DNA of 64,000 nucleotides from Dehalococcoidia bacterium (GCA_965220315.1 CBDCPP010000001.1:59809-123808); one strand, 5' to 3'; numbered from the stretch's first letter, positions 5,027 through 52,509 are shown. A program made the numbers and translations. The notes: generated by a model not told the origin, from the letters alone.

Positions 5027-5962
5027 CTAAAACGCCCCGATCACTTCCGACGCCACCCTGGCGTACACCTCCGGCTCGTTCGGCAGATCCGTGATGATCA
5101 CCTCCTCCGCTCCCGCTTCTTGGAACGCCGCGAGCGCCTCCACCACTCGCCCCGCCGGCCCGATCGGCAACGCCGCCTGCGCCTCCGGCGTCCGCACGAA
5201 CACCCCATAGCGCTCCCGCAGCCGCGCCTCCTCCTCCGCGTTCTCCGTCACGGACAGAAAAGTCAGAATCGACTTCCGGATCTCCCCCGGATCCCGTCCC
5301 GCCTCCTCGCAATGCCGTTCCAGCACCCCGATCTTGCGCCGCAGCTCCGCCGGCGTCGACGCCACCACGTTCATCACCTCCCCGTACCGCGCCACCGTCC
5401 GCAGGGTCCGTTGCTCGCCGCCCCCCGCGATCACCAACGGCGCTCGTGGCCGTTGTAAACAGCGGGGCGCCAGCACCGCCCGTTCCAAGCGGTAGTGCTT
5501 CCCCGCGTAATCGACCGGCCCCTCCGCCGTCAACAGCCGGTGCGTCAGATCACAGGCCTCCTCCAGCATCTCCGACCGCTCTCTCAACGGCGGATACGCC
5601 AGCCCGTACGCCGCGTGCTCCCGGCGGTGGTACCCCGCCCCCAACCCGATCTCCAGCCGTCCCCCGCACATCTGATCCAGCGTCGCCGCCATCTTCGCCA
5701 GCACCACCGGATGCCGAAACGTCACCGGCGAGACCAGCACTCCCAGCCGCACCCGCTCGGTCACCCGCGTCAGCCCCGCCAGCACCGACCAGGCCTCGTA
5801 GCAGTCGGCGCTCTCGTCGCCCAATACCGCCACCAAGTGATCGCCCGTCCACAGGCTGTGCCACGGCCCGGCATCCACCGCCCGCGCCGCCGCCTCGATC
5901 GCCGCCCACTCCGTCGCGATCAGCCGCAACTGCGCACCAAACTGCAGAGTACCCGCCCCCAT
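5027..5962 (-). CDS. LLM-class (luciferase-like) flavin/F420-dependent oxidoreductase
   Basis: [19 protein letters not shown]...LWTGDHL...[29 protein letters not shown] is the bacterial luciferase-like TIM-barrel pattern. The ATG at 5962 is preceded by an AAGGAAAAG RBS. The longer track ORF (to 6985) is an antisense read-through of leuC. Confidence 0.8.
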
Positions 5963-6079
5963 GGCTTTTCCTTCGCAACAATTCTCCCGCACCGCTGGCA
6001 CGGGATAGCTACAATAGCCGCCCGCTTCGATCGGCGCGCTTCGCGCCCGGGCGATCAAGCGAATGCGCCGGAGGAATGC

Positions 6080-7483
6080 ATGCCGCCCCGAACGCTCGCG
6101 CAAAAAATCTGGGACGCCCACCTCGTCTACCGCGAGGAAGGCCGTCCCGACCTCCTCTACATCGACCTCCACCTCACCCATGAGGTCACCTCCGCCCAGG
6201 CCTTCGACGGCCTGCGCGGGAGCGGCCGCAGGCTTCGCCGTCCCGACCTCACCATCGCTACGCCGGACCACAACGTCCCGACCGTCGATCGTGACAAGCC
6301 CTTCCCGGACCCTCTCTCCCAGCAGCAGGTCGATGCGCTCCGCGCCAACTGCGCCGAGTTCGACGTCCCGATCTTCGACGTCCTCGACGCCCGGCAAGGC
6401 ATCGTCCACGTCATCGGCCCCGAGCAAGGTCTCACCCAGCCCGGCATGACCATCGTCTGTGGCGACTCCCACACCTCCACGCACGGAGCCTTCGGCGCTC
6501 TTGCCTTCGGGATCGGCACCTCCGAGGTCGAGCACGTCTTCGCCACTCAAACGCTGCCCCAGCGCCGCCTCAAGCAGATGTCCGTCGAAGTCACGGGCCA
6601 ACTCCCGCCCTGGGGCACTCCCAAGGACATCATCCTCACCATCATCAACCGTATCGGCGTCAGCGGCGGCGTCGGTCACGTCATCGAGTACCGTGGCGAC
6701 GTCATCCGCAACATCTCCATGGAAGGCCGGATGACCATCTGCAACATGACCATTGAAGGCGGCGCCCGCGCTGGCCTCATCGCCCCGGACGACACTACCT
6801 TCGCCTACATCAAGGGCCGCCCGTACGCCCCCGCCGGCGACGGCTGGGACTCCGCCGTCGTCCACTGGCGCGCCTTCACCACGGACTCCGACGCCACCTT
6901 CGACACGGAAATCGTTATCGACGGCGCCGAGATCGAACCCCACGTTACTTGGGGCACCACCCCTGCCCAGAGCGTCCCCGTCCACGGCAATATCCCCGAC
7001 CCGGACGCTTTCGACGATCCCGCCGCCCGTGAGACTGCCAAGCGCGCTCTCGGCTACCAGCAGCTCCAGCCCGGTACCAAGATCACGGAGATCCCCCTGG
7101 ATCGCGTCTTCATCGGCTCCTGCACCAACTCACGCATTGAGGACCTCCGTGCCGCCGCCGCCGTCGTGCGCGGCAAGCGGGTCGCCGACACTGTGCACGC
7201 CATGGTCGTCCCCGGCTCTGGTTTGGTGAAGGCTCAAGCGGAGGAAGAGGGCCTCGCGGATCTCTTCCGCGCCGCCGGATTCGAGTGGCGCGAGGCTGGC
7301 TGCTCTATGTGCCTTGGCATGAACCCAGACATCCTCCAGCCCGGCGAACGCTGCGCTTCCACATCCAACCGCAACTTCGAAGGCCGGCAAGGACCAGGCG
7401 GCCGCACGCACCTCGTCAGCCCCCCCATGGCCGCCGCCGCCGCACTCGCCGGTCACTTCGTCGATCTCCGGGAGCTCTTCTAA
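6080..7483 (+). CDS. leuC: 3-isopropylmalate dehydratase large subunit
   Basis: [16 protein letters not shown]...[14 protein letters not shown] and the aconitase-family Cys ligands ([20 protein letters not shown]) are present. A GGAGG RBS at 6070 precedes the ATG at 6080. The stop overlaps the leuD start. Confidence 0.9.
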
Positions 7484-8079
7484 TGGATCCCGTCGCCACC
7501 GTTACCGGCAGCGCTATTCCCCTCGCTCAAGCCGATGTCGATACCGACCAGATCATTCCCGCCCGCCACCTGAAGCGCATCGAGCGCACCGGCTACGGGG
7601 AGTTCGCTTTCGAGTACTGGCGCAAGAACGCTCCCGACTTCGTCGTCAACCGTCCCGAGTATCAAAACGCTTCCATCCTCCTTGCCGGATCAAACTTTGG
7701 CTGTGGCTCCTCCCGCGAGCACGCCGTCTGGGCCCTCCAGCAAATGGGCCTGCGCGCCATCGTCGGCACCTCTTTCGCCGATATCTTCCGCAACAACAGC
7801 GCCAAGATGGGCCTGCTCCTCGCCTCCCTCGAGCCAGCCGACATCGACTATCTCATGAAGCGCGCGCAAGACACTCCCGATGCGCAGATCACCGTCGACC
7901 TTTCCACCCAGTCCGTCTCTATTCCCGGCGACTGGCAGCGATCCTTCGATATCGACCCGTTCGTCAAGCATTGCCTGCTCAACGGGCTCGATGACATTGG
8001 TCTTACGCTCCAGCACGAAGATTCCATCGCCGCTTTCGAGACCCAGCGCCCCACCCTTCTCCCCCGCACCAAGAGCTAA
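7484..8079 (+). CDS. leuD: 3-isopropylmalate dehydratase small subunit
   Basis: [26 protein letters not shown]...GSNFGCGSSREHAVWAL is the LeuD swivel domain. The taATGg stop/start overlap with leuC is present. Confidence 0.9.
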
Positions 8080-8293
8080 CTGTGTCACCTCACGGCCGCC
8101 CCTCCGACACTTACTCCAACCTCCGGCGCGTTGGAGCCGACGCCGCCATCCGCGGCTGCGCCGCCAACTTCTGGCGCAGACTTCTCCGGCGTCGCGCTTG
8201 CTGCGGCCGCTACGGTGATCCGGGCTGCTGAATCACCTGCGATCGTGCCATCCAGGAGGGATGGACACCACCCGCTGGCTCGCGAGACGGCGC

Positions 8294-9190
8294 CTAAATT
8301 CGCAACGATAGTTGCTGCGGCTCTGGCGATCTTTCGAAACGGCGTTGATCGAGGTCGCTGTAGCCCAAGGCTCTCTTCACCTCGTGCACGCGCCCCTCGA
8401 CCTGTGTCCGGTAGCGTTTTGGCGCGTGTTTCGTCCCGTAGAGCTGTTGATAGCCCGCGAGCAGATCGGGATATTCCTGTTGCAGAAACCCGAAAAAGTG
8501 TTCGCGCACATCGGGGCCGAGGTGCAGTACGTTCGATCCGATGAAGCGTGCGCCGTGCGCCGCCGCCGCGCGCACAGTGGCCGTGACCTTGGTCCGCTCC
8601 GCCGAGAGACCAGGCAGCAACGGTGCCACCAGCACGCCGCAATGCACGCCTGCGGATACTAGCTGCTCCATCACCCGAAGCCGCTGTGGCGGCTCCGGCG
8701 TGCCGGGCTCCGTCCGTTGCCAGATCTCCCGATCGACGGTGGGGACGCTGAAGCATACGCTCACGCCCGCGCGCCGGCCCAGCTCTTGCAGAATGTCGAC
8801 ATCCCGCACGATCAAGGTCCCCTTGGTCACGATCGAGACCGGCGTGCGGAAGCGCGTGAACAGCTCCAAGCTCTGTCGCGTGAGGCGGTAGCGCCCCTCT
8901 GCTGCCTGGTACGGATCCGTCGCCGTTCCCACGGCCACCTGCTCCCGCCGCCACCCCCGCCGTCCCAGCTCCCCCGCCAGCACCTCCGGCAGGTTCGTCT
9001 TGACGAAGATAATCCCCGAGAAGTCTGCTCCGGCCCCGAGTTCGAGATAGCGGTGCGTCGAGCGTGCGAAGCAATACTGGCACCCGTGCACGCAACCCCG
9101 GTACGGGTTCAGCGACCAGCCGAACGCCATCCCCCGGACCCGGTTCAGCGCGGACTTGCATGCGATCTCCCGGTATTCGGCCTGCGCCAT
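8294..9190 (-). CDS. Radical SAM protein, spore-photoproduct-lyase-like DNA repair family (SplB/Rv2578c-like)
   Basis: The CxxxCxxC motif in NPYRGCVHGCQYCFARS is present, with overall similarity to SPL-type radical SAM 'DNA repair photolyase' proteins. The ATG at 9190 is preceded by AAGGTGGAGAGG. The track ORF 8085..9251 in another frame of the same strand is considered spurious. Confidence 0.75.
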   Translation of the reverse strand: MAQAEYREIACKSALNRVRGMAFGWSLNPYRGCVHGCQYCFARSTHRYLELGAGADFSGIIFVKTNLPEVLAGELGRRGWRREQVAVGTATDPYQAAEGRYRLTRQSLELFTRFRTPVSIVTKGTLIVRDVDILQELGRRAGVSVCFSVPTVDREIWQRTEPGTPEPPQRLRVMEQLVSAGVHCGVLVAPLLPGLSAERTKVTATVRAAAAHGARFIGSNVLHLGPDVREHFFGFLQQEYPDLLAGYQQLYGTKHAPKRYRTQVEGRVHEVKRALGYSDLDQRRFERSPEPQQLSLRI

Positions 9191-9266
9191 TGCCTCTCCA
9201 CCTTTCCAGAGCCATTGAACGCGGAGCCCTCTCGCGCTTCGGCCAGGCCATAACGGGGCCACATAT

Positions 9267-9283
9267 TAGAACACAAGTTCTTA
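9267..9283. promoter_or_regulatory. Candidate LexA/SOS (Cheo-type) box, GAAC-N4-GTTC
   Basis: The near-palindromic TAGAACACAAGTTCTTA lies in the divergent intergenic region about 80 nt upstream of the radical SAM DNA-repair gene start. It also lies upstream of leuB on the other strand. Confidence 0.4.
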
Positions 9284-9412
9284 TTAGGGAAAGGGGCAGT
9301 CGCTACGCTGGGGCAGGCGATCGCAAAACGCGCTCCGGTCCCTGCCGGGACAACGGCTACGGCGAGGCCATAAGATCAGTACGCTTTTGGCGTTTCAGCG
9401 GAGAGGACAGAT

Positions 9413-10501
9413 ATGAGCAGCTATCGCATCGCGCTGCTGCCGGGCGACGGCATCGGCCCCGAGGTCATCGCCGAGGCCGTCAAGATCCTTGACGTCGTCG
9501 GCCGCCAGTTCGGCCACGACTTCACCTACAGCGAGGCCACCGTCGGCGGGGCCGCCATCGACGCCTACGGTACCGCTCTCCGCCCGCAGGACCTCGCCAT
9601 GTGCAAGCGCCAGCACGCCGTTCTCTTCGGCGCCGTCGGTGGCCCCCAGTGGGACAATCCCCGCGCCAAAGTCCGTCCCGAGCAAGCCATTCTCGGCCTG
9701 CGCAAAGGCTTGCGCCTCTTCGCCAACATTCGCCCCGTCAAGATGTTCAGCTTTCTCGCCAACAGCACCACGCTCAAACGCGCCGTCGTCAAGGATGTCG
9801 ACATGATCATCCTGCGCGAGCTCACCGGCGGCATCTACTTCGGCAAGCCCCAACGCCGTTGGTCCGACTCCCGCGGCCGCAAGGCCGTCGACACCCTGCG
9901 CTACTCCGAGCAGGAGATCGAGCGTATCGTCCGCCTCGCCTTCGAACTCGCGCGCGGCCGTCGCAAGCACGTCACTTCCGTCGACAAAGCCAACGTCCTC
10001 GACAGCTCCCGGCTCTGGCGCGAAGTCGCGACCGAAGTTGCTCCCGACTACCCGGACGTCACTCTTCGCCACCTTCTCGTCGACGCCGCCGCCATGCACC
10101 TCATCCGCCAGCCCGCCGATTTCGATGTCGTCGTCACCGAAAACCTCTTCGGCGACATCCTCACGGACGAAGCCTCCATGCTCGGCGGCTCCATGGGCAT
10201 GCTGCCCAGTGCCAGCCTCGGCCGCCGCCGCAAGGACGGCACCGGTCTCGGTCTCTACGAGCCCATTCACGGCACCGCTCCCGACATCGCCGGTTCCGGC
10301 AAAGCCAACCCCGCCGCCGCGATCCTCAGCGCCGCCCTGCTGCTGCGCCATTCCCTCGGCCTGGAAGACGAAGCCGCCGCCGTCGAGCGCGCCGTCGAGA
10401 AAGTCCTGCGCGCCGGCCACCGCCCCCCGGACATCGCCTTGCCGGGCAAACGCCCCCTCAAGACTCGCCGGCTGGGCGACCGGATCGCCGCTGCGATCTA
10501 G
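9413..10501 (+). CDS. leuB: 3-isopropylmalate dehydrogenase
   Basis: [26 protein letters not shown] is present, along with the isocitrate/isopropylmalate dehydrogenase motif [39 protein letters not shown] precedes the start. Confidence 0.9.
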
Positions 10502-10688: not shown

Positions 10689-13600
10689 GTGAGAGTACCA
10701 GTGCCGCGAATCTTCGATAATCTGGCCTCTGACTCCAAGCTCCTTCCCGCCCTGCAGGAGACCTTCGCCCTCTCATCCCGGGCGGACCTATGCGTTGGCT
10801 ACTTCAATCTCAGGGGTTGGGGAGGTCTTGCGCCGTATGTGGATCGTTGGGATTCAGACGTAGGTCCGTGCCGTGTGCTCATTGGGATGCAACGTCTGCC
10901 CCACGAAGAGCTTAGGGACGCCAGCAGTCTGACGGATCGGTTCTCCGGCATGGACAACCAGACGGCGCATCGCCTTAAGGTCCAGTTAGCCGAGCAGCTG
11001 CGCCAGCAACTGACCATTGGAGTACCTACCAACATAGACGAGCAGGTCCTGCGGCGGCTGGCAGCTCAACTTCGCGCGGGTAAGGTCGTTGTTAAGCTCT
11101 ATCTCCGCCACCCTCTCCATGCCAAGCTCTATCTCCTGTTCCGTGACGACCCCATCAATCCGATCGTGGGTTATCTGGGCAGCAGCAATCTGACGTTTTC
11201 CGGCCTGTCTGGCCAAGGTGAACTGAATATTGATGTGCTCGACCACGACGCCGCCCTCAAACTCCAAAAGTGGTTCGAGGACAGGTGGAGCGACAAATAC
11301 TGCATTGACATCACGGACGAGCTGGTCGAGATCATTGAAGAGAGCTGGGCGCGCGAGGCCCTGATCCCGCCTTATCACGTCTACCTCAAGATGGCCTATC
11401 ACCTTTCCCACGAGGCCCGCGCGGGCCTGGCCGAGTTCAAGATTCCAGCAGTCTTTGGTGACCGTCTCTTCGACTTCCAGGCTGCGGCGGTCAAGATCGC
11501 AGCCCACCATCTGAACAAGCGCAACGGTGTACTCATCGGCGACGTGGTGGGGCTCGGCAAGACTCTGATGGCCACGGCCGTGGCTCGCATCTTCGAGGAC
11601 GACTACGGACTAGAGACCCTGATCCTGTGCCCCAAAAACCTCGTCGGCATGTGGGAAGACTACGTCCACGAGTATCGACTGCGAGCCAGAGTCCTCTCAC
11701 TCAGCAAGATGATCAGCGAACTCCCCGATCTGCGCCGGTACCGGCTGGTCATCATCGACGAGAGCCACAATCTCCGGAACCGGGAGGGCAAACGGTATCG
11801 CGCGATTCAGGAGTACGTCCGCGCCAACGACAGTAAGTGCATCCTGCTATCGGCTACGCCTTACAACAAGACCTACTTGGACCTGTCGAATCAGCTGCGC
11901 ATCTTCGTAGAAGATGATCAAGATCTCGGCATCCGTCCCGAGAAGCTTCTCCGCGAATTGGGGGAGGTCGAGTTCAGCAGGCGGCACCAAGCATCCCCCC
12001 GAACTCTGGCGGCCTTCGACCAGAGCAAGCACGCCGCCGACTGGCGCGACCTGATGCGTCTCTATCTCGTGCGCCGGACACGGAGCTTCATCCAGGACAA
12101 CTACGCGGAGACGGACCCGGAAACAGGTCGAAAGTTCCTTACGTACGAGGATGGAAACAGATCGTTCTTCCCAACCCGCGTGCCAAGGACGGTCAAGTTC
12201 ACTATCGACGAGTCTGACCCGGTAGACCAATACGCTCGCCTGTATTCGCAGGACGTGGTCGATATCGTAAAAACGCTGCAACTGCCCCGTTACGGTCTCG
12301 GCAACTACGTCGCTGATGATCCCCACCTTCTGCCCACGCAAGCGGAGGCGGGGCAGATAGAAGACCTCTCACGGGCGGGCAAGCGGCTCATGGGTTTCTG
12401 CCGCACGAACCTTTTAAGCGCCTCGAAAGTAGCGGCGCGGCCTTCCTGCAGTCGGTGGAGCGTCACGTGCTCCGAAACTACGTCTTCCTCCACGCAATCC
12501 GCCAGGGACTGCTGCTGCCTCTGGGCACCCAGGACGCCGAAATGCTCGACTCGCGATTCACCGACGAGGACGCGGACGGGCCTCTGGCTAGCATCTTCGA
12601 ACTCGAAAATGAGGACGAGAAGGATCAAGGAGCCGGAGAGTCCGGCGCCCCAAGAGTACCCATCCTGACGGCGGCCGACTTCGAAGCGCGCGCCGCTGAG
12701 ATATACGCAGAGTACGAGAGCCGCTACCAGCGAAGATTCAAGTGGCTCCGCTCCAGTCTCTTTACGGACGCGCTGGAAGCTGACCTTCAGTCGGACGCCG
12801 CCGCCCTTTTGCAGGTCCTTCAGGCGCATGGAACCTGGAACCCGGAACATGACGCGAAACTGCACGCTCTCCACACTCTCCTCGCGGAGACGTTCCCCGA
12901 CCGGAAGGTGCTGGTCTTCTCTCAGTTCGCGGACACGGTCCGTTATCTGGAGGAGCAACTCGAGGGCAGAGGCGTGACCGCCATGGCCGGAGTGACCGGT
13001 GACTCCGCCGACCCAACGGGACTTGCACAGCGGTTCAGTCCGGTCAGCAACGAGAAGGGGGATGTCATCTCGCCCGGACAGGAACTTCGCATCCTGATTG
13101 CCACCGACGTGCTAAGCGAAGGGCAGAATCTTCAGGACTGCTCGGTGGTCGTGAACTACGATCTGCCGTGGGCAATCATCCGGCTCATCCAGCGTGTGGG
13201 CCGTGTGGACCGCATCGGTCAGAAGGCGGAGGAAATCCTGTGCCACTCTTTCCTGCCCGCCGAAGGGGTCGAGGGCATCATCAAACTCCGTAACCGAGTC
13301 CGGACGCGGCTCCAAGAGAATGCCGAGGTCGTCGGCGCGGACGAAGCGTTCTTCGAAGACGAGGCCGACTCACGGACCATCCTCAACCTCTACCACGAAA
13401 GAGCCGGCATCTTGGATGGCGACGCCGACAGTGAGGTGGACTTGGCCTCCCACGCCTACCAAATATGGAAGAACGCCATCAGTGCGGACCCGTCACTGGA
13501 GAAAGCCGTCGCTAACCTGCCCGACGTGGTGTTCTCGTCGCGGCAGCATGCGCCTATAGCCCAGCGACCGGAGGGCGTCCTCGTCTTCATGCGCACCGCG

Positions 13601-14110
13601 GACGGGAACGACGCTCTCGCCTACGTCGGGCGGGATGGCCGGAGCATCACCGAGTCGCAGATCGAAATCCTCGCCGCTGCCGAGTGCGGGCGGGACACCC
13701 CCGCTCAGCCTCATCACGAGAGCCACCATCACCTTGTTGCCGAGGGGGTCAAGCACATCGTCAAGGAGGAGAAGCGGGTTGGGGGCCAGCTTGGACGGCC
13801 TTCGGGCGCGCGCTTCCGCACCTATACCCGTCTCAAGCAGTACGCGGAGGAGATCAGAGGCCAGCTCTTCGACACCGCACCGCTGCACAAGGCCATCGAC
13901 GACATCTATCGGTACCCCTTGCGCCAGTCGGCCGTTGACACCCTGAACCGGCAGTTACGCAGCGGGGTCGACGACATAGCGCTGGCCGGCATCGTCATCT
14001 CTTTGCACGAGGAAGACCGGCTGTGCGTAACCGACGGCGACGACGCCGAGGTCCAAGAGCCGCGGATCATCTGTTCTCTGGGGCTCTTCGACGGTGAAGA
14101 GGGCGCCTGA
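10689..14110 (+). CDS. PLD(HKD)-family nuclease domain fused to an SNF2/DEAD-like helicase, with an apparent frameshift between two overlapping ORFs (10689..12668 and 12455..14110); possible pseudogene or sequencing error
   Basis: N-terminal HKD motif HPLHAKLYLLFRDD...GYLGSSNLTFSGL. Helicase motif I is LIGDVVGLGKTLMATAV, motif II is IIDESHNLRN and motif VI is QRVGRVDRIGQ. Frame 2 is open from 12320, and the frame-0 tail after about 12420 is Ser/Thr/Cys-rich nonsense. The likely real start is the GTG at 10701, which has a GAGAG RBS. The stop overlaps the methyltransferase ATG (tgATGc). Confidence 0.7.
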
Positions 14111-16974
14111 TGCCGGTCGCGATTGATGAGCTGCGGCCCCACCTGCAGACCTTCGACTTCCGAAGCCTTTTGGTGGAAGGGTTGGGATGGGACCACTACC
14201 TGGCGGAACCCCTGAGCGTTCCGGTGGAAGGTCACGATTATCTCTTGGAGCCGGTCGCGGAGAAGGCTGGATTCGTTGTTTACGCCTGCGGCCCCGGCGC
14301 TGACGGTTCGATCCCCGAGTACCCGGTCCGGCGAAAGATCGAGCAGCAGGTTGCCAAGCTGGCGTTCGAGCACATGCTTATCTTCGTCGATGCCGGACGG
14401 GACACGCAGATCTGGCAGTGGGTCAAGCGGGAGAGCGGAAAGCCCGCTGCCTGCCGCGAGCAAACGTTCCACCGAGGCCAGACAGGGGAGCCCCTGCTCC
14501 AGCGCCTTCAGACCCTTGCCTTTGAGCTGGAAGAACAGGGTCGGCTGAGTATTCCGGAGGTTGCCTCTCGCGTCCAGCGGGCCATGGACGTGGAGAAAAT
14601 CACCAAGCGCTTCTATGAGCGCTTCAAGACGGAACTCGAAGCCTTCCAGAGCTTCATCGACGGCATCGCCGAACAGGGCGACCGCGAGTGGTACGCCTCC
14701 CTGATGCTCAATCGCATGATGTTCATCTACTTCGTCCAGAAGCAGGGCTTCCTCGACGGCGATCCCGACTATCTCCGCAACCGTCTGCACATGGTCCAGA
14801 ACGGGCGCGGCGCCGGACGGTTCCAGCAGTTCTACCGCATCTTCCTGTTGCGGCTGTTCCATGAAGGGCTGGGACGGCCCGAAGCGGAGAGGTCGCCCGA
14901 TCTGGCCGCGCTGCTGGGCAAGGTCCCCTTCCTCAACGGCGGCCTGTTCGACGTGCACGACCTGGAGCGAGACAACCCGGACATCAGCATCCCCGATGAG
15001 GCCTTCGAGGAGGTCTTCGCCTTCTTCGACGGCTACCGCTGGCACCTCGACGAGCGGTCCGACAAGGTCGACAACGAGATCAATCCCGACGTGCTCGGCT
15101 ACATCTTCGAGAAGTACATCAACCAGAAACAGATGGGCGCCTACTACACCAAGGAGGACATCACCGGCTACATCACCCGCAACACGGTGATCCCTTTCCT
15201 CTTCGCCGCCGCCAAGAAAGAATGCCCGGTGGCCTTCGCTCCCGGAGGCGGCGTCTGGCGCCTGCTGCAGGACGACCCCGACCGCTACATCTACCCCGCC
15301 GTCGGGCACGGCCTCGCCTGGGCGTACGCCACCGATGCCGAGCCTCAGCCTCTAGAACATCCTTTGGATCTACCGGAGGAGATCGCTGCGGGCGTTGATG
15401 ACGTGTCCAAGCGCGGGAACTGGAACCAGCCCGCCTCCGCCGCCCACGCCCTGCCCACCGAGACCTGGCGCGAGGTGGTGGCCCGGCGCCAGCGCTACCA
15501 GGAAGTCCGCGCCACGCTTGCGGCGGGCGGGATTTCCGACGTCAACGACTGCATCACCTTGAACCTCAATATCGAGCGGTTTGTAAAGGACGTCATCGTC
15601 CAGAGCGAGGGACCGGAGCTGCTGCGCGCCTTCTGGCACGCCATGCGCGATGTCGCCGTGCTCGATCCTGCCTGCGGGTCGGGCGCTTTCCTCTTCGCCG
15701 CACTCAACATCCTCGAACCGCTCTACACGGCCTGCCTGGAGGGGATGTGGGGCTTCCTCGATGACCTGGAGCGCTCGAACCATCCTCGCCACCCCGAGAC
15801 CATGCGCGACTTCCGAGCCGTTCTGAAACAGGTCGCACAGCACCCCAGCGAGCGCTATTTCATCCTTAAGTCCATCGTCCTCAACAACCTCTACGGCGTC
15901 GATATCATGGAAGAGGCAGTCGAGATCTGTAAGCTGCGTCTCTTCCTCAAGCTCGTCGCCCAGCTCGAAACCCCCGACCAGATCGAGCCGCTGCCCGACA
16001 TCGATTTCAACATCCGCGCCGGCAATACTCTGGTGGGCTTCACCTCGCTCGACGCGGTACAGCAGGCCATGACCATCATGCCCGACGGCCAGCATCGCGC
16101 CCTGTTCGATGAGGAACGGATCATGCTCGACCTCATCAAGGAGGAAGCGGAAGTCGCGAGCCGGGCCTTTGACCAGTTCCGGGAGCAGCAGACCAAGCTC
16201 GGCGGCGAGGTCACCGCCGCAGACAAGGCCGACCTGCGCCTCCGTTTGGAGGGCCTCGGGAACGAACTCGACCGCTACCTGGCGACCGAGTACAGGATCG
16301 ACCCCGACGACCCGGACGCCTTGGGAAGCTGGCGTAAAAGCCACCAACCCTTTCACTGGTTCGTGGAGTTCTACGGGATCATGAACAAAGGTGGGTTCGA
16401 CGTGGTTATCGGGAATCCGCCATACATAGCAAGACGGAAGGTAATCCAGTCGTACACGCCGAAGGGGTTTCGCACGGCAGACTGTCCGGACGTGTACGCC
16501 ACGGTCGTGGAGCGAAGCGTCAACGTCTGTCGGGCCAATGGTCGTATCGGCATGATAGTGCCGCTCAACCTGACCTTCAGCGCGAACTTCGCCAGTCTGC
16601 GCGCGATCATGTACGAGAAATGCGGCTCCAACTGGTTCTCATCGTTTGGACGCATCCCGTCGGCTCTCTTCAGCTTTGATACGCGGGTGCGCAACACGAT
16701 ATATCTAGGACAGAAGTCATCCGGCGCATCCACGCACTGCTTCACCACGCGGCTTCACAGGTGGTTCGACTCCCAGCGGCAAGCGCTGTTCGAGGTCCTG
16801 TCCTACGCTCCCTTCTCGTCGGCGGCTTTCGATGGGTTGGTTGCCCAAGATAGGCAGCGCCCGGCTTCTACGAGATTTTCAGTCTCTGTTGGAGGGCGGA
16901 GAGTATCGGCTCCGGAACGAACTTTCCCCCACACGCGACGGTCATCCTCTTCATTTCAAGCAGACTGCGTATAA
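14110..16974 (+). CDS. Gamma-class N6-adenine DNA methyltransferase, large (PglX/Eco57I/DrmMI-like); the C-terminus may continue into the next ORF by a frameshift
   Basis: Motif X is GAYYTKEDITGYI, motif I is VLDPACGSGAFLFAALN and motif IV is VIGNPPYIARRK, in gamma-class order. There is a long N-terminal helical domain. The last roughly 50 aa of this frame are low-complexity (RQRPASTRFSVSVGGRRVS...). Confidence 0.8.
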   Translation: MPVAIDELRPHLQTFDFRSLLVEGLGWDHYLAEPLSVPVEGHDYLLEPVAEKAGFVVYACGPGADGSIPEYPVRRKIEQQVAKLAFEHMLIFVDAGRDTQIWQWVKRESGKPAACREQTFHRGQTGEPLLQRLQTLAFELEEQGRLSIPEVASRVQRAMDVEKITKRFYERFKTELEAFQSFIDGIAEQGDREWYASLMLNRMMFIYFVQKQGFLDGDPDYLRNRLHMVQNGRGAGRFQQFYRIFLLRLFHEGLGRPEAERSPDLAALLGKVPFLNGGLFDVHDLERDNPDISIPDEAFEEVFAFFDGYRWHLDERSDKVDNEINPDVLGYIFEKYINQKQMGAYYTKEDITGYITRNTVIPFLFAAAKKECPVAFAPGGGVWRLLQDDPDRYIYPAVGHGLAWAYATDAEPQPLEHPLDLPEEIAAGVDDVSKRGNWNQPASAAHALPTETWREVVARRQRYQEVRATLAAGGISDVNDCITLNLNIERFVKDVIVQSEGPELLRAFWHAMRDVAVLDPACGSGAFLFAALNILEPLYTACLEGMWGFLDDLERSNHPRHPETMRDFRAVLKQVAQHPSERYFILKSIVLNNLYGVDIMEEAVEICKLRLFLKLVAQLETPDQIEPLPDIDFNIRAGNTLVGFTSLDAVQQAMTIMPDGQHRALFDEERIMLDLIKEEAEVASRAFDQFREQQTKLGGEVTAADKADLRLRLEGLGNELDRYLATEYRIDPDDPDALGSWRKSHQPFHWFVEFYGIMNKGGFDVVIGNPPYIARRKVIQSYTPKGFRTADCPDVYATVVERSVNVCRANGRIGMIVPLNLTFSANFASLRAIMYEKCGSNWFSSFGRIPSALFSFDTRVRNTIYLGQKSSGASTHCFTTRLHRWFDSQRQALFEVLSYAPFSSAAFDGLVAQDRQRPASTRFSVSVGGRRVSAPERTFPHTRRSSSSFQADCV

Positions 16975-17443
16975 CTGGCTGACCTTTTGCGTAGATCAGC
17001 CTCCCGCATTCGGGCCGGATGGCGATCATATTCTTCAGACCGAGTATGGAACGGTGAAGTTCGGAAATCAGAACAACCGAGATCTGTCCATGTTGCTGGC
17101 GAACGGCAAGCTCATGTTCGTGTGGTGGGCTGGAGTTGGAGACGATTTTCACCTAACTCAGACAGTTCTCAAGAGCGCTCCGGTGGGGCCAAGACAACTC
17201 ACGGAGGAACACCAGAAGTTTCTTCTGGCTTCGCTGCTGGATCTAGAGCGTGCTATGGCTGAGAACGTGGTGTTCAAGCGGAACGCAGGTAAGAACATCG
17301 GGAACTACAACCTGGCCCGCTGCCGCTGGATCACGGACAAAGCGGACAAAGTCTGGCTGGAAGCGCTGGCCCTGAGCGATCTATGGGAGGAGATCCAACT
17401 GGAGTATTCGCTGGTGGTCAGGACCTCCTTTGAGGAGGAGTAA
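16832..17443 (+). CDS. Hypothetical 203-aa ORF; either the methyltransferase target-recognition/C-terminal domain reached by a frameshift, or a separate small gene
   Basis: It overlaps the methyltransferase ORF end by about 140 nt in a different frame, and its frame is open from 16709. Its translation is protein-like, whereas the methyltransferase-frame tail is not. Its end overlaps the start of the next gene, which suggests translational coupling. Confidence 0.45.
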   Translation: MGWLPKIGSARLLRDFQSLLEGGEYRLRNELSPTRDGHPLHFKQTAYNWLTFCVDQPPAFGPDGDHILQTEYGTVKFGNQNNRDLSMLLANGKLMFVWWAGVGDDFHLTQTVLKSAPVGPRQLTEEHQKFLLASLLDLERAMAENVVFKRNAGKNIGNYNLARCRWITDKADKVWLEALALSDLWEEIQLEYSLVVRTSFEEE

Positions 17444-18011
17444 GAAGACGCGTTTGAGGGTCAACCTCCCACCGGCGACTGTGGTGAAGGGCAATCTCGA
17501 CCTGCTTGGTGAGTCGTTGACTGCCCTCTTCTGCTCCGTCCGCTGTCCCGGCGATCTAATTCTCAAAACCTACGATCTCGCCAGGGCGATGCGCGGTTCC
17601 GGCACGCCCGTGATCGGTGGCTTCCAAACGCCGATGGAGAAGGAGTGCCTGCGCCTGCTGCTCCGGGGCAGTCAGCCGGTCGTCGTGTGCCCGGCTCGTG
17701 GCATCGAGAAGATGCGGGTCCCCCGTGACTGGCGCCCAGCCCTGGAGGAAGGCCGGCTGCTGGTCCTCTCCCTCTTCCCGCCCTCGCGCCGCCGTCCCAC
17801 GGCGGAGACCGCCGCCCGGCGCAACGACTTAGTGGCATCCCTCGCCCGCGAGGTCTTCATCGCTCACGCCGCCGCGGGCGGCAAGACCGAAGCCTTCGCC
17901 CGTAAGATCGCGGACTCCGGCAAGCCCCTCCTCACTCTCGACAGCCCTGCCAACGCGAACCTGCTGGCGCTGGGCGCCCGCCCCGTCACGCCGGAGTTCG
18001 CTCAGCGCTGA
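17430..18011 (+). CDS. DprA/Smf-like (SLOG-superfamily Rossmann) protein
   Basis: The pattern GSGTPVIGGFQTPMEKECLRLLL...VVVCPARGIE...RLLVLS...RRNDLVASLAREVFIAHAAAGGKTEAF matches the DprA Rossmann nucleotide/ssDNA-binding fold. It begins at a TTG/GTG alternative start that overlaps the previous ORF. Confidence 0.6.
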   Translation: MRRSKKTRLRVNLPPATVVKGNLDLLGESLTALFCSVRCPGDLILKTYDLARAMRGSGTPVIGGFQTPMEKECLRLLLRGSQPVVVCPARGIEKMRVPRDWRPALEEGRLLVLSLFPPSRRRPTAETAARRNDLVASLAREVFIAHAAAGGKTEAFARKIADSGKPLLTLDSPANANLLALGARPVTPEFAQR

Positions 18012-18261: not shown

Positions 18262-19896
18262 GTGAACGCTCCGCGTGTGATCCTCTACGACACCATTCTC
18301 CGCGACGGCTCCCAGATGGAAGGCATCGCCTTCTCCCTTGAGGACAAGCTCGCCATCGCGCACCGCCTCGACGATATCGGCGTCCACTACATCGAAGGCG
18401 GCTTCCCCGGCTCCAACGAGAAGGACCGCCTCTTCTTTCAAGAGATCAAGCGCACTCCCCTCAAGCATGCCAAGGTGGTCGCCTTCGGTGGCACCCGCCG
18501 CGCCGGCCTCCAGGTCCAGGACGATCCCAACATCCAAGCGATCGCGGATGCGGACACCACCGTCGTCACCCTCGTCGGCAAGGCCAGCAGCTATCAGGTC
18601 CGCGTCGCCCTCGAGACCAGCGGCGAAGAGAACCTCGCCATGATCGCCGACTCCGTCGCTCACTTCAAAGCCCTCGGCCGCGAGGTCGGCTTCGACGCCG
18701 AGCACTTCTTCGACGGTTTCCGTGACGACTCGGACTACGCTCTCCAAACCCTCCGCACTGCCGCCCGCGCCGGCGCCGACACGCTCATCCTCTGTGACAC
18801 CAACGGCGGCGCTCTCACCGCCGACCTCGTGCACGCGATCGAAGCTGCCAAACGAGCCGTCCCGCAGGCGCAGTTTGGCATCCACGTCCACAACGACACC
18901 GGCCTCGCCGTCGCTAACAGCCTCGCCGCCGTCTCCGCCGGCGTTGTGCAAGTCCAAGGCTGCTTCAACGGTTACGGCGAACGCTGCGGTAACGCCAACC
19001 TCGCTACCATCCTCGCCACCCTCCAGCTCAAAATGGGCATTCCCGTTGTCAACAACGAGCAGCTCGCCCGCCTCACCGAGATCTCCCGCTACATCGCCGA
19101 ACTCGCCAACCTCCCCTTAGATTCGCAAGCCCCATACGTCGGCGCCAGTGCCTTCGCCCACAAGGCCGGCTACCACGTCGCCGCCGTCATCAAGGACGAG
19201 AACACCTATCAACACGCGAAACCCGCCGCCGTCGGCAACGACCGCCGGGTCCTCGTCAGCGAGCTCTCCGGGCAGCGCAATATCTCCTACAAACTGCGAG
19301 AGCGCGGCCTGGACCTTCCCCTTACTCCCGAAGAGACCAGGGCCCTGCTCGAACGCGTCAAGCAGATGGAGAGCCGCGGGTACCAGTACGAGGGCGCCGA
19401 TGCCTCCTTCGAGCTACTCGCCCATCGCGCCCGTCCCAACTACACGCCCCCCTTCGAGCTTGAGGACTTTCTCATCGTAGAGCGTCGCCGCCACACGGCT
19501 GATCTTGCCAACGGGGAAGCCGAAAACGAGGCGGCCGAGAACAGTGAGCGCAACGAGATGCTCGCCGAAGCGATGGCCAAGGTCGGCGTTTCCGATCAGC
19601 TCTTCCAGACCGCCGCCGAAGGTAACGGGCCCGTCAACGCGCTCGACCGGGCCGTTCGCAAAGGCTTGCGCGAGGCCTACCCCGCGCTCGACCGCATGCA
19701 CCTGCTCGACTACAAGGTTCGTATCCTCGACGCTGCCGCCGGTACCGAGGCCAAAGTCCGCGTCCTCATCGAATCCACCGACGGCGAGCACATCTGGAAC
19801 ACCGTTGGCTCCTCCACCGATGTGATCGAGGCCTCCTGGCTGGCTCTCGCCGACGCCTTCGAATACTTTCTGCTCAAGCAAGAAGAATGGCGCTAA
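18262..19896 (+). CDS. cimA: LeuA-family 2-isopropylmalate/(R)-citramalate synthase (probably CimA)
   Basis: MNAPRVILYDTILRDGSQMEGIAFSLEDKLAIAHRLDDIGVHYIEGGFPGSN and HVHNDTGLAVANSLAAV are present, with a LeuA-like C-terminal regulatory domain. It is a second paralog besides leuA in an ilv/leu context. The start is a GTG. Confidence 0.85.
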   Translation: MNAPRVILYDTILRDGSQMEGIAFSLEDKLAIAHRLDDIGVHYIEGGFPGSNEKDRLFFQEIKRTPLKHAKVVAFGGTRRAGLQVQDDPNIQAIADADTTVVTLVGKASSYQVRVALETSGEENLAMIADSVAHFKALGREVGFDAEHFFDGFRDDSDYALQTLRTAARAGADTLILCDTNGGALTADLVHAIEAAKRAVPQAQFGIHVHNDTGLAVANSLAAVSAGVVQVQGCFNGYGERCGNANLATILATLQLKMGIPVVNNEQLARLTEISRYIAELANLPLDSQAPYVGASAFAHKAGYHVAAVIKDENTYQHAKPAAVGNDRRVLVSELSGQRNISYKLRERGLDLPLTPEETRALLERVKQMESRGYQYEGADASFELLAHRARPNYTPPFELEDFLIVERRRHTADLANGEAENEAAENSERNEMLAEAMAKVGVSDQLFQTAAEGNGPVNALDRAVRKGLREAYPALDRMHLLDYKVRILDAAAGTEAKVRVLIESTDGEHIWNTVGSSTDVIEASWLALADAFEYFLLKQEEWR

Positions 19897-39439: not shown

Positions 39440-40663
39440 ATGGGCAGAGGAAGCGTGCGATCGGGAAGGCCAACTTGTGACGGGAGCACTGTGATCTCTG
39501 AGGTCGCCCTACGCTACGGCACGAACCCCCACCAGACGCCCGCCCGCGCACGGCGCTCCGGCGCCCCCTTGCCATTCGAGGTGCTCAATGGCGCGCCTGG
39601 TTATATCAACCTGCTCGACGCACTCAACGGCTGGCCATTGGTGCGCGAGTTGCGTGCGGCGACGGGCGAGCCGTCCGCTGCCTCGTTTAAGCACGTCAGC
39701 CCGGCTGGGGCGGCGATCGGACTACCGCTTTCGGAAGCGCTGCAGCACGCTTACGCTCTCGGTGGGACAGAGCTGTCGCCGCTGGCCGCTGCCTATGCGC
39801 GCGCACGCGGTGGCGACCTCATCTCCTCTTACGGTGATTTTGCCGCATGCAGCGACACCGTTGACGCCTCGGTGGCGGAGGTGCTGCGGCGCGAAGTGTC
39901 CGACGGGATCATCGCTCCTGGTTACGACGCGGATGCGCTGAAGATCTTGCGCGCCAAGAAAGCCGGGAAATACCTGATCATTCAGATCGACCCGGATTTC
40001 GAGCCTCCGCCGACCGAACTGCGAGATGTATTCGGGATCCAACTGGAGCAACCGCGTGATACAGAGCCCGTGACACTCGATCGGCTCACCAACGTTGTGA
40101 CGAAGAAAAAAACGATTCCATCCGAGGCGCAGCGCGACTTGCTCGTCGCGACCATCGCGCTGCGGTACACGCAGTCGAATTCGGTGTGCGTGGCAAACGG
40201 CGGCCAGGTGATCGGACTGGGCGCCGGACAGCAGTCGCGGATCCACTGTTCACGCATCGCCTGCTCTAAGGCAGATCGCTGGATGCTGCAGCAACATCCG
40301 CGAGTGCTGCAGCTGCCGCTGAGAAAAAAACTCAAGCGGCCGGAACGCTTCACGGCGCGCGAACAGTTCATCGCGCATGATGAGCTGTCTCCTGCCGAGC
40401 AGGTGCACCTCGCGAACCAGATGACCGAGCCGGTGCAGCCGCTAAGTCCGGAGGAGCGGCGCGCGTGGATCGGCGAATTCACGAACGTCCTTAGCCACGA
40501 CGCCTTCATGCCGTTCCGCGACAATGTCGACCGCGCGCAAGCGAGCGGCGTGCGCCACATCCTGCAGCCCGGCGGCTCCATCGCCGATGAGGGAGTGATC
40601 GCTGCGGCGGATGAATACGGCATGGCGATGGCCTTCTCCGGGCTACGCCTTTTCCATCACTAA
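39440..40663 (+). CDS. Standalone AICAR transformylase (PurH formyltransferase domain only; no MGS-like IMP cyclohydrolase domain)
   Basis: ALRYGTNPHQ (compare PurH GxNPHQ), SFKHVSPAGAAIG and ...GGSIADEGVIAAADEYGMAMAFSGLRLFHH match the AICARFT domain. The start may instead be the GTG at 39491, which has a GGGAG RBS. Confidence 0.75.
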   Translation: MGRGSVRSGRPTCDGSTVISEVALRYGTNPHQTPARARRSGAPLPFEVLNGAPGYINLLDALNGWPLVRELRAATGEPSAASFKHVSPAGAAIGLPLSEALQHAYALGGTELSPLAAAYARARGGDLISSYGDFAACSDTVDASVAEVLRREVSDGIIAPGYDADALKILRAKKAGKYLIIQIDPDFEPPPTELRDVFGIQLEQPRDTEPVTLDRLTNVVTKKKTIPSEAQRDLLVATIALRYTQSNSVCVANGGQVIGLGAGQQSRIHCSRIACSKADRWMLQQHPRVLQLPLRKKLKRPERFTAREQFIAHDELSPAEQVHLANQMTEPVQPLSPEERRAWIGEFTNVLSHDAFMPFRDNVDRAQASGVRHILQPGGSIADEGVIAAADEYGMAMAFSGLRLFHH

Positions 40664-45544: not shown

Positions 45545-46983
45545 GGCTGGGTCGAGTATATCGCTGCGGGTCGCTCGTCCGGTTGGGACAGCGAAGGCCA
45601 ACGGTCGTGCCAGGGCCGCGCCCGCTCGTACGCGTACGAGGCCTGAAGCACGAGATCGTCGCGATGTCGGGGCCCAACGATTTGCAGCCCGCAAGGTAAG
45701 CCCGCATCGCTGAAACCTGCCCGCACCGAGGCTGCGGGATGGCCGGTGAAGTTGAACGGATAGGTGAAGACGATCGGGTCGTGCGGGACACCGTCCTTCT
45801 GTAAGGGGGTAGGCCCCTCGGCATTGAACGCCTCCGAAGCAAGCGTTGGTGTGAGCAGCAAGTCGTACTGCTCGAAGAGTTCCCAGGTCCAGCGCTGGAT
45901 CTGCCCGCGTGCACTGTAGAACGCTCGGAAGTCAGTGGCGTTCACGTCCAAGGAGGCATCTAGATACCGGACGAAGTCGGCGGTGAACTCGCTATGGCGA
46001 TCGCGGTACTCCTCCCAGAGAAGTGCCAGCGCTTGGAAGCCGAACATGCGGATCCAGTGCTCCGCCGTCTGAGGGATGGCGTCGGCGTTGTCGACGACTG
46101 TGTGCCCAAGATCGCGAAAGACCTGAACGCTGGCCTCAACTTCGCGCATGATGTCCGCTGGGACGTCCGCCTGACCGAGCGTGCGATTGTAGGCGATACG
46201 TAGCTTTGGCAAAGGACGGTCGAGCGCCGCGATGTAGGACTCTGTCGGCGGTGGCAACGATATGGGATCGGAGCCGTGCGGCCCGGCGACCTGATCTAGG
46301 TAGAGCGCGGCATCGCGGACCGTGCGGGTGAGTGGACCGTAGACGCTGATATTCATCCACGGTTGCATCGCGCGCGGTCCGATGGGCACGCGGCCGAACG
46401 ATGTCTTAAGTCCGTAGAGTCCTGTGTACGCCGCGGGAATGCGGATTGATCCGCCGCCGTCGGAAGCGGTAGCGAGGGGCACGAGGCCGCCCGCTATCGC
46501 TGCTGCCGATCCCCCGCTGGAACCGCCGGGCGTACGTTCTAGGTTCCAGGGATTGCGCGATGCTCCGAATAGATCGTTGCTCGAGAAGGCGGCATAGCCG
46601 AACTCGGGCGTGTTGGTTTTGCCGACGACGATCGCGCCGGCCGCGCGCAGCCGCGTCACGTGCACGTCATCCCATTCGGCGTAATGATCTTTGAGCACCC
46701 GTGATCCGCAGGTCGTAGGGAAGCCGGCGGCGTTCTCTAAATCCTTCACCCCGAGGGGGAGACCGCCCAAAGGACCCAATTCTTCCCCACGGGCCAGCTG
46801 CTCCGTTTGGCGGGCCGCTTCGGCGCGAGCGGTCTCTGCGTCGAGGGCAACGAAGGCGTTGAGGGCGGGATTGAGTGCCTCGATCCGATCGAGCGCGTGG
46901 TCGAGGAGTTCGGTGGGCGAGATCACTCGCCTGCGGATGAGGCTACTGAGTTCTTCGGCGCTGGCGAAATCGAGGTCGGTCAC
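45541..46983 (-). CDS. Amidase (amidase-signature family)
   Basis: The [32 protein letters not shown] signature with Ser-cisSer-Lys is present. An AGGAGG RBS lies 5 nt before the GTG at 46983. Confidence 0.85.
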
Positions 46984-47141
46984 TGTCCTCCTACGGCGCG
47001 GACGCGATTCTAGTAGGCTCTTCGCGCCCGGTCTCTCCGAAAAATAGCCGAGCAGGCTACGCTGAGACGGACGGTCCCCTTATATTGGATACGGCTCGGC
47101 GGGATGCGGGCGGCTCGTCGTCCGCAGGTGACTGACGGACA

Positions 47142-51595: not shown

Positions 51596-51666
51596 TTCTC
51601 CATCTTCAGGCCGATTGCCGCGCTTTTGGAGGCACTGCTAGGCTTCCGGAACTTACGCGGCGCTTT

Positions 51667-52497
51667 GTGCGCGCGGTGCGCGAGTGGAAAGGATCTATCG
51701 TGCCAGCTGCTGCTCACGTGTCATTCCCCGCTGAAGGCGTAGGAATGGTGTTGATGGATGATCCACCGAAGAACTTCGGCTCGTATGAGCTGCTAGCGCA
51801 GGTCGAAGAGGGAATCGAAGAGGTCAAGGCCGCTGGCGCGCGCGTGCTATTGCTCGCCTCGGACGTGCCCGGTTACTTCATGGCGCACGCATGGCTGCCG
51901 GATGTGTTGAACGCCTATGAGGGCAGCAAACCGAGCGGCGATCCGCGTCTCTGGCGTCGGCTGACGAACGAGTTGGAGCGCGGACCGCTCATCTCGATCG
52001 CGGTGAATCATGCACAAGCCTGGGGCGGCGGCGCTGAATTGAGCTGGGCCTGCAATCTGCGCGTGGCGGGTCGGAGCGCGACCTACTGTCAGGTTGAGAG
52101 CATTCTCGGGGTGATCCCGGGAGGTGGCGGCACGGTCCGCCTCTCCCGGCTAGTAGGGCAGTCCAAGGCGATGGAGATCTTGCTGGCCGGTGAGCCGATG
52201 ACCGCTGAGGAGTTGCACACCCTCGGCTTGGTGAACAAAATCTTCGACGACGACGATCTGCGCGCGAGTGCGATCGCCTGGGGGGCACTGATCGCGACTC
52301 GGCCTCACTGGTCTCTGCAGGCTTGCAAGCGTGGCCTGTTGCAGGCTTGGGATATGCACTTCGAGGACGCCTGCCGAATCGAGAACTATATCTTCAACTC
52401 AATGATGCGGCCGCGCACCATCGAGATCATGCAAGAGATTCAAGATCGTTACGATGCGGGCGCCGATTCCTGGGAGGCGTACGAACTTCAGCGTTAG
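51667..52497 (+). CDS. Enoyl-CoA hydratase/isomerase (crotonase) family protein
   Basis: The crotonase fold is present (AVNHAQAWGGGAELSWACNLRVA; oxyanion-hole region). The likely true start is the GTG at 51700, which has an AAAGGA RBS. Confidence 0.75.
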   Translation: MRAVREWKGSIVPAAAHVSFPAEGVGMVLMDDPPKNFGSYELLAQVEEGIEEVKAAGARVLLLASDVPGYFMAHAWLPDVLNAYEGSKPSGDPRLWRRLTNELERGPLISIAVNHAQAWGGGAELSWACNLRVAGRSATYCQVESILGVIPGGGGTVRLSRLVGQSKAMEILLAGEPMTAEELHTLGLVNKIFDDDDLRASAIAWGALIATRPHWSLQACKRGLLQAWDMHFEDACRIENYIFNSMMRPRTIEIMQEIQDRYDAGADSWEAYELQR

Positions 52498-52509
52498 ATC
52501 GCGAGATGC

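Follow-up and report, generated by a model that had tools for sequence, protein, structure and literature searches.

In this study, we analysed a block of genes at positions 10689-18011 of a 64,000-nucleotide stretch of DNA from a Dehalococcoidia bacterium (GCA_965220315.1, CBDCPP010000001.1:59809-123808), hereafter called the window. Our analyses suggested that the block is likely a copy, acquired by horizontal transfer and since inactivated, of a widespread defence module of three genes that resembles restriction-modification (R-M) systems and would work by the mechanism outlined below. It consists of three genes, which encode a phospholipase D (PLD)-SNF2 helicase, a large N6-adenine methyltransferase and a DprA-like protein, and two of them are frameshifted. 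All open reading frames (ORFs) of the block lie on the plus strand, and the three genes stand between leuB and cimA. The Pfam domains follow each other in the order PLDc_2 with RE_NgoFVII, SNF2-rel_dom, Helicase_C, Eco57I with MmeI_Mtase, and DNA_processg_A. The original prediction, made from the nucleotide sequence of the window, had counted four genes, one of them an ORF of 203 amino acids (aa), and had treated the helicase gene as a single ORF. Its observations were partly confirmed and its interpretation was partly supported: the motifs quoted for the helicase and the methyltransferase were all recovered in the checked translations at the positions in Table 1, the domain assignments (PLD with SNF2/Helicase_C, Eco57I-type methyltransferase, DprA-like domain) agreed with Pfam, PADLOC and NCBIfam, the proposal of an R-M-like defence module held, and the stop/start overlaps between genes are real (TGATG at 14108-14112, and 14 nt at 17430-17443). 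The gene count did not survive.

The helicase gene is split by a deletion of one nucleotide, within a run of four T (12412-12415), into two overlapping ORFs, 10689-12668 and 12455-14110. Adding one base within CTTTTAAG (12411-12418) gives the reading TNLFKRLESSGAAFLQSVERHV, and at this site TNLFKRLESS or INLFKRLESS was found in 120 of 120 homologues among the matches listed, with the homologue codons AAC CTN TTC AAR, the last three of which encode LFK. The repaired helicase has a length of about 1136-1140 aa, likely starts at the GTG at 10701, and, with 99-100% of its length covered, is 80-84% identical from end to end to intact proteins of 1127-1141 aa. The methyltransferase gene is split by an extra G at 16843 into an ORF of 954 aa (14110-16974) and the 203-aa ORF (16832-17443), which is not a gene of its own and represents the severed C-terminal ~200 residues of the methyltransferase. 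Taking out this G yields AAFDGLVPKIGSARL / AAFDGLVPKIGSARLL, equal to the homologue consensus. Intact homologous methyltransferases are single proteins of 1100-1130 aa that cover 100% of the repaired query, and the tail matching the 203-aa ORF runs in frame straight after the core in L001, L004, L011, L012, L015, L016 and L023.

The family is immense in number and broad in distribution. Intact helicase homologues formed at least 8000 protein clusters at 90% identity, and helicase relatives were present in at least 587 species among 185,579 species genomes (one genome per species) from many phyla and classes, including Nitrospirota, Acidobacteriota, Latescibacterota, Poribacteria, Desulfobacterota, Alphaproteobacteria, Clostridia and others. 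The closest among the matches listed came from Dehalococcoidia, at ~80% identity, and copies on plasmids were seen in cyanobacteria and actinobacteria. Intact operons occur, among others, in the cultured strains Pseudaminobacter salicylatoxidans DSM 6986 (L057) and Mesorhizobium sp. M0587 (L049), and L026 and L048 are examples of loci with the DprA-like gene. Specifically, in 77 of 80 species loci the helicase had the methyltransferase behind it at a distance of no more than 2 kb and in the same orientation (in one of the 77 as a short N-terminal methyltransferase match only), often with overlapping stop and start codons. The genomic position differed in every genome and was typically a defence or mobile island or a plasmid, where neighbours and embedded cargo included integrase, transposases, VapBC, SMODS with a Cap17-like protein, an AAA_21 ATPase, MTaX1-HNH and YhcG. 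Gene order, the conservation of which had been proposed as a check on the prediction, was strongly kept amid these defence and mobile genes. A prophage origin was also considered and dropped, as the helicase family was essentially nowhere in phage genomes, with one weak partial match.

The methyltransferase matched the PADLOC Type IIG model PDLC03628 with E = 2.8e-283 over profile positions 11-895 of 1100, and Pfam assigned Eco57I (1.9e-26) plus MmeI_Mtase. In a profile search, the best solved relative of its catalytic core was PglX/BrxX, followed by CamA, TaqI, BseCI and MmeI; this search reached methyltransferase cores only, and a single-sequence search against PDB sequences gave no match. 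Across 59 loci, median pairwise identity was 65% for the helicase, 53% for the methyltransferase core and 34% for the C-terminal ~200-215 aa of the methyltransferase, and in one third of the locus pairs these C-terminal parts had no detectable similarity. Such hypervariability is the behaviour expected of a target-recognition (specificity) domain, and the C-terminal region is presumed to be one. The first ~135 residues form a further domain specific to the family, for which a confident alpha/beta model was obtained (pLDDT, a predicted score in the local distance difference test, of 88.5). No nuclease motif was found in this N-terminal domain, and no convincing nuclease domain or motif in the whole methyltransferase. 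In the representative library, 869 clusters at 50% identity contained the domain, nearly always at the N-terminus and in full-length proteins of ~1050-1175 aa, and none of the matches listed was longer than 1175 aa. One library protein, P0416 (1050 aa), carried four separate matches to the domain, the best at residues 630-717, which hints at repeats or a rearrangement in its architecture not shared by other family members.

A PLD nuclease domain is present on the helicase. Pfam identified, at residues 120-203, PLDc_2 (E = 8.3e-8) and the N-terminal PLD domain of RE_NgoFVII (E = 4.3e-6), and the whole protein contains one HxK motif. The catalytic HKD and GSxN motifs, fused to the motor, are kept across the helicase family.

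The third protein is DprA-like in fold and distant from canonical DprA. It scored 30.7 bits against the Pfam DNA_processg_A cut-off of 29.6, barely above it, and 24.6 bits against the cut-off of 191 for canonical DprA (TIGR00732), and it matched the PADLOC PsyrA model with E = 3.5e-16. The AlphaFold2 model (pLDDT 90.4) superposed in Foldseek on DprA of three species and on the antitoxin ShosA (8zva), with template-modelling scores of about 0.72-0.73 and E values of about 1e-9. Among loci with at least 9 kb of downstream sequence, a subfamily hidden Markov model placed the gene 3' on the same strand in 42 of 61 and upstream once. In the reverse direction, with the DprA-like protein as query, the methyltransferase or helicase was found upstream in 26 of 40 metagenomic loci that each had more than 2.5 kb of upstream sequence. 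The DprA-like protein is therefore a frequent and specific, though optional, partner of the module, and the original view of the gene as a part of the system stands in so far as the association is frequent, not as an obligatory one. In L054 (Ktedonobacterales), the DprA-like gene lies upstream of the helicase, at ~5850-6400, ~4.1 kb before the helicase stop; tblastn placed the DprA-like match of this locus at 9308-9826.

The methyltransferase and the DprA-like gene were separated by about 0.1 to 5.5 kb across loci, an interval that contained VapBC, SMODS with a Cap17-like protein, an AAA_21/AAA_15 ATPase, MTaX1-HNH, YhcG/DUF1016 or a DEAD-HIRAN helicase (L005, L007, L009, L014, L017, L021, L042, L051, L061, L016, L062 and L079). 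With conserved genes on either side, this interval has the appearance of an insertion hotspot. An unannotated protein of 1009 aa with a partner of 210-231 aa was further cargo of this interval. An ATP-binding AAA_21/AAA_15 protein followed by a ~200-aa protein stood directly after the methyltransferase in a number of distant lineages (L166 at 7503-9301, Anabaena cylindrica pANACY.05; L021; L042; L061), and the label DUF4276 for the ~200-aa protein comes from the Anabaena record only. In addition, a small PIN/VapC toxin-antitoxin cassette of the VapBC type was found repeatedly between helicase and methyltransferase in distant lineages (L007, L008, L009, L032, L062, L071, and L165 at 12487-13120).

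Table 1. Coordinates of the genes, domains, motifs and frameshifts of the block, in positions of the window.
Feature	Position	Strand	Remark
PLD(HKD)-SNF2 helicase gene	10689..14110	+	pseudogene here
N-terminal PLD nuclease domain, single HKD motif	10689..11303	+	Pfam PLDc_2, RE_NgoFVII
HAKLYLLF (HAK 11118-11126)	11118-11141	+	PLD motif
GSSNLT (contains GSSN)	11178-11195	+	PLD GSxN signature
SNF2 motor	11478..13222	+	motifs and Pfam
GLGKT; DESH; SATPYN	11550-11564; 11757-11768; 11850-11867	+	SNF2 motifs
Frameshift 1, one base missing in CTTTTAAG	12411..12418	+	homologue comparison
Helicase_C; QRVGRVDRIGQ	~12857-13219; 13190-13222	+	SNF2 motor C-lobe
Eco57I/PglX-like gamma-class N6-adenine methyltransferase gene	14110..17443	+	~1110 aa repaired; pseudogene here
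Family-specific N-terminal alpha/beta domain, ~135 aa	14110..14514	+	
GAYYTK; DPACGSGAFL; NPPY	15136-15153; 15664-15693; 16414-16425	+	gamma-class methyltransferase motifs
Frameshift 2, extra G	16843..16843	+	homologue comparison
C-terminal variable region, presumed target-recognition domain (the '203-aa ORF')	16844..17443	+	
DprA-like protein (DprA/Smf Rossmann fold)	17430..18011	+	193 aa, ORF intact

Taken together with the domain content, these features suggest how the module may act. The methyltransferase would recognise a short asymmetric site via its variable C-terminal domain, methylate one adenine and thereby mark the host DNA, a step that finds partial support in the homologue described below. 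The PLD-SNF2 protein, judged by its domains, would translocate with ATP along double-stranded DNA bearing unmodified sites, and two copies may pair to complete a nuclease centre and then cut. As each protein has one HKD half-site, two copies would be needed, and cleavage would be tied to the meeting of two enzymes; this collision or dimerisation logic would parallel that of Type III, Type ISP and ATP-dependent PLD restriction enzymes. The DprA-like protein might, speculatively, serve as a dispensable regulator that binds single-stranded DNA (ssDNA) and acts as a brake (or trigger) on the nuclease-helicase, via ssDNA or RecA. The brake role is suggested by analogy with the DprA-like antitoxins RqlI/PsyrA and ShosA, of which RqlI keeps the helicase-PRTase RqlH in check and ShosA binds both ssDNA and RecA.

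A homologue in Synechocystis PCC 6803 bears on this mechanism. Plasmid pSYSX carries a helicase homologue (at 43696-47151; 53% identical to P0001), then VapBC, then the 1100-aa methyltransferase slr6050, which shares 43% identity with the intact homologue P0121. To slr6050 (M.Ssp6803IV), the asymmetric motif GA(m6A)GGC was assigned tentatively; its deletion could not be segregated, and the gene was concluded to be essential (Hagemann et al., 2018, PMC6105098). Failure to delete slr6050 is what would be expected if the adjacent PLD-SNF2 protein restricted unmethylated host DNA; the explanation by the upstream helicase-nuclease is our inference and not a claim of that work. Immediately downstream of the pSYSX copy, on the opposite strand, genes for multiubiquitin, E2/UBC, a ThiF-type E1 and DUF6527 were observed (L165 16924-19545; pSYSX 51619-54240). 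This ubiquitin-like conjugation cluster resembles Bil-type defence systems, and a pair of helix-turn-helix and ImmA/IrrE genes adjoins it.

We compared the block with named systems, and DISARM, BREX, BR/Hma, Type ISP, Type III and PsyrTA/ShosTA each differ from it in at least one defining feature. Class 1 DISARM likewise has an SNF2 helicase adjoining a large Eco57I/PglX-type N6-adenine methyltransferase, which there marks a non-palindromic site, and a PLD nuclease in the system. However, PLD is here fused to the SNF2 N-terminus and not a separate DrmC, a DprA-like partner is present, and the core triplet DrmA, DrmB (DUF1998) and DrmC (PLD) was not recovered at the block; DUF1998 was also absent from the annotated neighbourhoods of the homologues L001 and L002. 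The DrmD models (NCBIfam NF038317/NF038318) gave at best 107.6 bits against a cut-off of 610, and the PADLOC DrmMI model matched partially, with E = 3.3e-25 as against 2.8e-283 for the Type IIG model. The BREX proteins PglZ and BrxC/PglY were absent from the block, its flanks, L001 and L002, and the best score against the BREX PglX models (NCBIfam BREX_x_MTaseX) was 70.7 bits, the cut-off being 500. The prediction that the block falls outside DISARM and BREX was thus borne out, with neither DrmA/DrmB nor PglZ/BrxC present and NCBIfam scores far under the cut-offs. Type-2 BR/Hma-like systems comprise a DUF499 ATPase, an N6-methyltransferase, an HKD-Swi2/Snf2 helicase effector and a stand-alone DUF3780 protein (PMC12839542). 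The block likewise pairs an N6-adenine methyltransferase with a Swi2/Snf2 helicase that bears an HKD endonuclease at its N-terminus, and the PADLOC model 'HKD+Snf2' was the top match of the N-terminal helicase ORF (4.7e-21) and the third, after two DrmD models, of the C-terminal ORF (1.2e-24). The methyltransferase here is nevertheless of the Eco57I/PglX type and the HKD+Snf2 match is partial (E about 1e-21 to 1e-25), and neither a DUF499 AAA+ ATPase nor DUF3780 was found in the block, L001 or L002.

Among single-chain enzymes, the methyltransferase shares with PglX and with Type IIG/IIL enzymes (Eco57I, MmeI, DrdV, Cj0031) a gamma-class core (FxGxG, NPPY), large size and a C-terminal specificity domain, and it combines methyltransferase and specificity in one polypeptide that belongs to a REBASE-derived model; unlike in Type IIG/IIL enzymes, the PLD nuclease here belongs to a second protein, the ATP-dependent motor. 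Type ISP (LlaGI/LlaBIII) and Type III enzymes resemble the module in their motor, nuclease and methyltransferase with a specificity domain, which would here too act on asymmetric, hemimethylated sites. They differ in that the module has two polypeptides, an SNF2 motor in place of a Type ISP/Res motor, and PLD in place of Mrr or PD-(D/E)xK. The single polypeptide of Type ISP is replaced by two genes, and almost none of the 869 N-domain clusters has an internal N-domain; as regards Type III, which pairs a beta-class Mod with Res, an SF2 helicase carrying PD-(D/E)xK at its C-terminus, the methyltransferase here is gamma-class and Eco57I-like, the nuclease is an N-terminal PLD, and the nuclease-motor gene precedes the methyltransferase gene in reversed order. 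NgoAVII and CglI share the NgoFVII-type PLD nuclease (by Pfam) and the dependence of cleavage on an SF2 ATPase motor. PsyrTA (RqlHI) and ShosTA also encode a DprA-fold protein with a DNA-acting partner, but the block has no PRTase toxin and its DprA-like protein is only a 193-aa Rossmann core and optional. No PRTase domain was detected by Pfam in any product of the block, and a PsyrT match (6.6e-5) covered the generic helicase C-lobe only. As to novelty, no paper naming the gene combination was found within the literature searched, where the pairing is noted in passing only. In this sense the combination is undescribed, as had been predicted, yet parts of it were known: PADLOC assigned the methyltransferase, and nothing else of the block, to a system (by the REBASE-derived Type IIG model), the homologue M.Ssp6803IV has been studied, and a table of programmed-inversion loci lists Type II RM coding sequences beside coding sequences with phospholipase D and SNF helicase domains (Milman et al., 2023), entries that we liken to this family by domain description and not by sequence.

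Whether the block is truly decayed depends on the frameshifts, which could instead be assembly errors in a module that is intact and active in this organism, a view that we regard as rather unlikely. The source sequence evidently comes from long-read metagenome assemblies, and frameshift 1 sits in a run of four T. Long-read basecallers make systematic errors, for example at methylated motifs. However, a second assembly of the same organism, L083 (ENA ERZ25072076 ctg239168_4x_l, a 98-kb contig at 4x coverage), which is 99.93% identical to the window over 22.6 kb, also has both frameshifts, and the two assemblies differ at 15 other indel positions (and one mismatch), where the extra indels of L083 lie mostly in short homopolymers. 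Frameshift 2 is no change in homopolymer length. Furthermore, 29 of 29 other genes of the window checked by Pfam had full domain coverage, among them ilvB, ilvN, ilvC, leuA, leuC, leuD, leuB, cimA, hydantoinase B, the M1 and M3 peptidases, the amidase, the POR subunits, MetE and the SbcCD-like pair. The confinement of the two frameshifts to the 7.3-kb block argues for genuine decay of the restriction-like and modification genes, and a decaying R-M system would be expected to end with both of them lost. This copy of the module, as its reading frames indicate, is probably dead. Several points weigh against our reading of the block as a decayed R-M-like module. A systematic sequencing error could be common to both long-read assemblies; restriction of phage or plasmid DNA is not known for any member of exactly this family; about 30% of loci lack the DprA-like gene, as do the plasmid copies of Synechocystis and Anabaena, and a minority of its homologues (47-51% identity) stand alone amid housekeeping genes; the essentiality of slr6050 has other possible causes, the upstream helicase was not considered and the motif assignment is tentative (PMC6105098). 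Finally, class 1 DISARM does not need its PLD gene drmC, and loss of its methylases causes no autoimmunity or toxicity, so a helicase-methyltransferase pair such as DrmD-DrmMI need not act as a classical R-M system.

The last point also supports a BREX/DISARM-like exclusion, in which the pair would block replication of an unmethylated invader without classical cleavage and PLD would be dispensable. Pairs of SNF2 and PglX-like methyltransferase recur in class 1 DISARM (DrmD-DrmMI), BREX type 3 (BrxHII-PglXI) and ARMADA (ArmA-ArmB), and PglX/BrxX is the closest solved methyltransferase. We hold exclusion to be improbable, given that the HKD and GSxN motifs are kept and motor-fused family-wide, that the other BREX/DISARM core genes are absent and that the Synechocystis methyltransferase homologue appears essential, unlike DrmMI. 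About as improbable is a methyltransferase that acts on its own as a Type IIG enzyme, the label given to it by REBASE and PADLOC, its single chain comprising nuclease, methyltransferase and specificity domains and the PLD-SNF2 protein being an accessory or second effector and not the restriction subunit. It is very improbable that the genes have no role in defence and represent an orphan regulatory methyltransferase, a helicase for repair or recombination and a DprA paralogue that serves DNA uptake. The copy in the window is indeed embedded in an operon for amino-acid biosynthesis and lacks integrase and repeats, DprA acts in transformation, and a few DprA-like homologues lie amid housekeeping genes; against this, the position varies per genome, typically in defence or mobile islands or plasmids, the nuclease and the motor are fused, the specificity domain is hypervariable, and the DprA-like protein falls far short of the TIGR00732 cut-off (24.6 against 191 bits). 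The reading as an R-M-like module, in which the family is an uncharacterised and widespread variant of ATP-dependent restriction-modification, is preferred. A bolder version of it is tentative, and we would not yet lean towards it: the PLD-SNF2 protein and the N-domain Eco57I-like methyltransferase, with or without the DprA-like protein, may form a distinct and unnamed ATP-dependent R-M class, a 'split Type ISP with a PLD nuclease', in which two converging motor-nucleases would complete one HKD site, a DprA-fold binder of ssDNA or RecA would gate the nuclease, and the interval would be a hotspot for defence genes.

If the preferred reading of an R-M-like module is true, a very common and phylogenetically broad R-M architecture is only half recognised by current defence-finder tools, which report a 'Type IIG' enzyme on its own and overlook both the nuclease-motor and the DprA-like partner. 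This reading would also explain undeletable 'orphan' large methyltransferases such as slr6050, provide a new case of an SNF2-driven PLD nuclease and extend the range of DprA-fold proteins as regulators of bacterial immunity. The copy in the window is itself of modest interest, as a decayed insertion in a leucine biosynthesis operon in which one supposed gene is a frameshift artefact.

In the window, the block lies between leuB (9413-10501) and a cimA/leuA-type gene (18262-19896) and interrupts the ilvBNC-leuA-leuCD-leuB cluster. Within the block, GC skew amounts to about -0.015 to -0.09, whereas the flanks show values of -0.13 to -0.20. Both the skew and the interruption of the operon are consistent with a foreign origin. 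No integrase was found around the block, and flanking direct or inverted repeats, sought as insertion scars, amounted to short chance matches. Within the ilv-leu cluster, which is otherwise co-directional, the opposite strand carries a luciferase-like monooxygenase and a radical-SAM gene, at 5027-6985 (-) and 8297-9265 (-); for the radical-SAM gene, the assignment was taken from the L083 gene calls.

Other frameshifts were suspected in the window and rejected: ilvN/ilvC, M1 peptidase/amidase, the POR subunits, the SbcCD-like pair and the epimerase/short PurH pair are separate, complete genes. The PurH-like gene (39440-40663) has the AICARFT part only (profile positions 76-311) and no MGS/IMPCH domain; the ORF upstream of it is an unrelated complete epimerase, and the gene is a short form and not a frameshifted one. 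In L083/L084, the 15 extra single-base indels break leuD, cimA and more of the defence genes, which illustrates the fragmentation of genes in low-coverage long-read contigs. Over the 64-kb window, strongly negative GC skew extends from 1 to ~28 kb; between 28 and 42 kb the values are close to zero, and further on they turn positive. The cumulative skew has its minimum near 32-36 kb, which may mark a switch of the replication-origin type.

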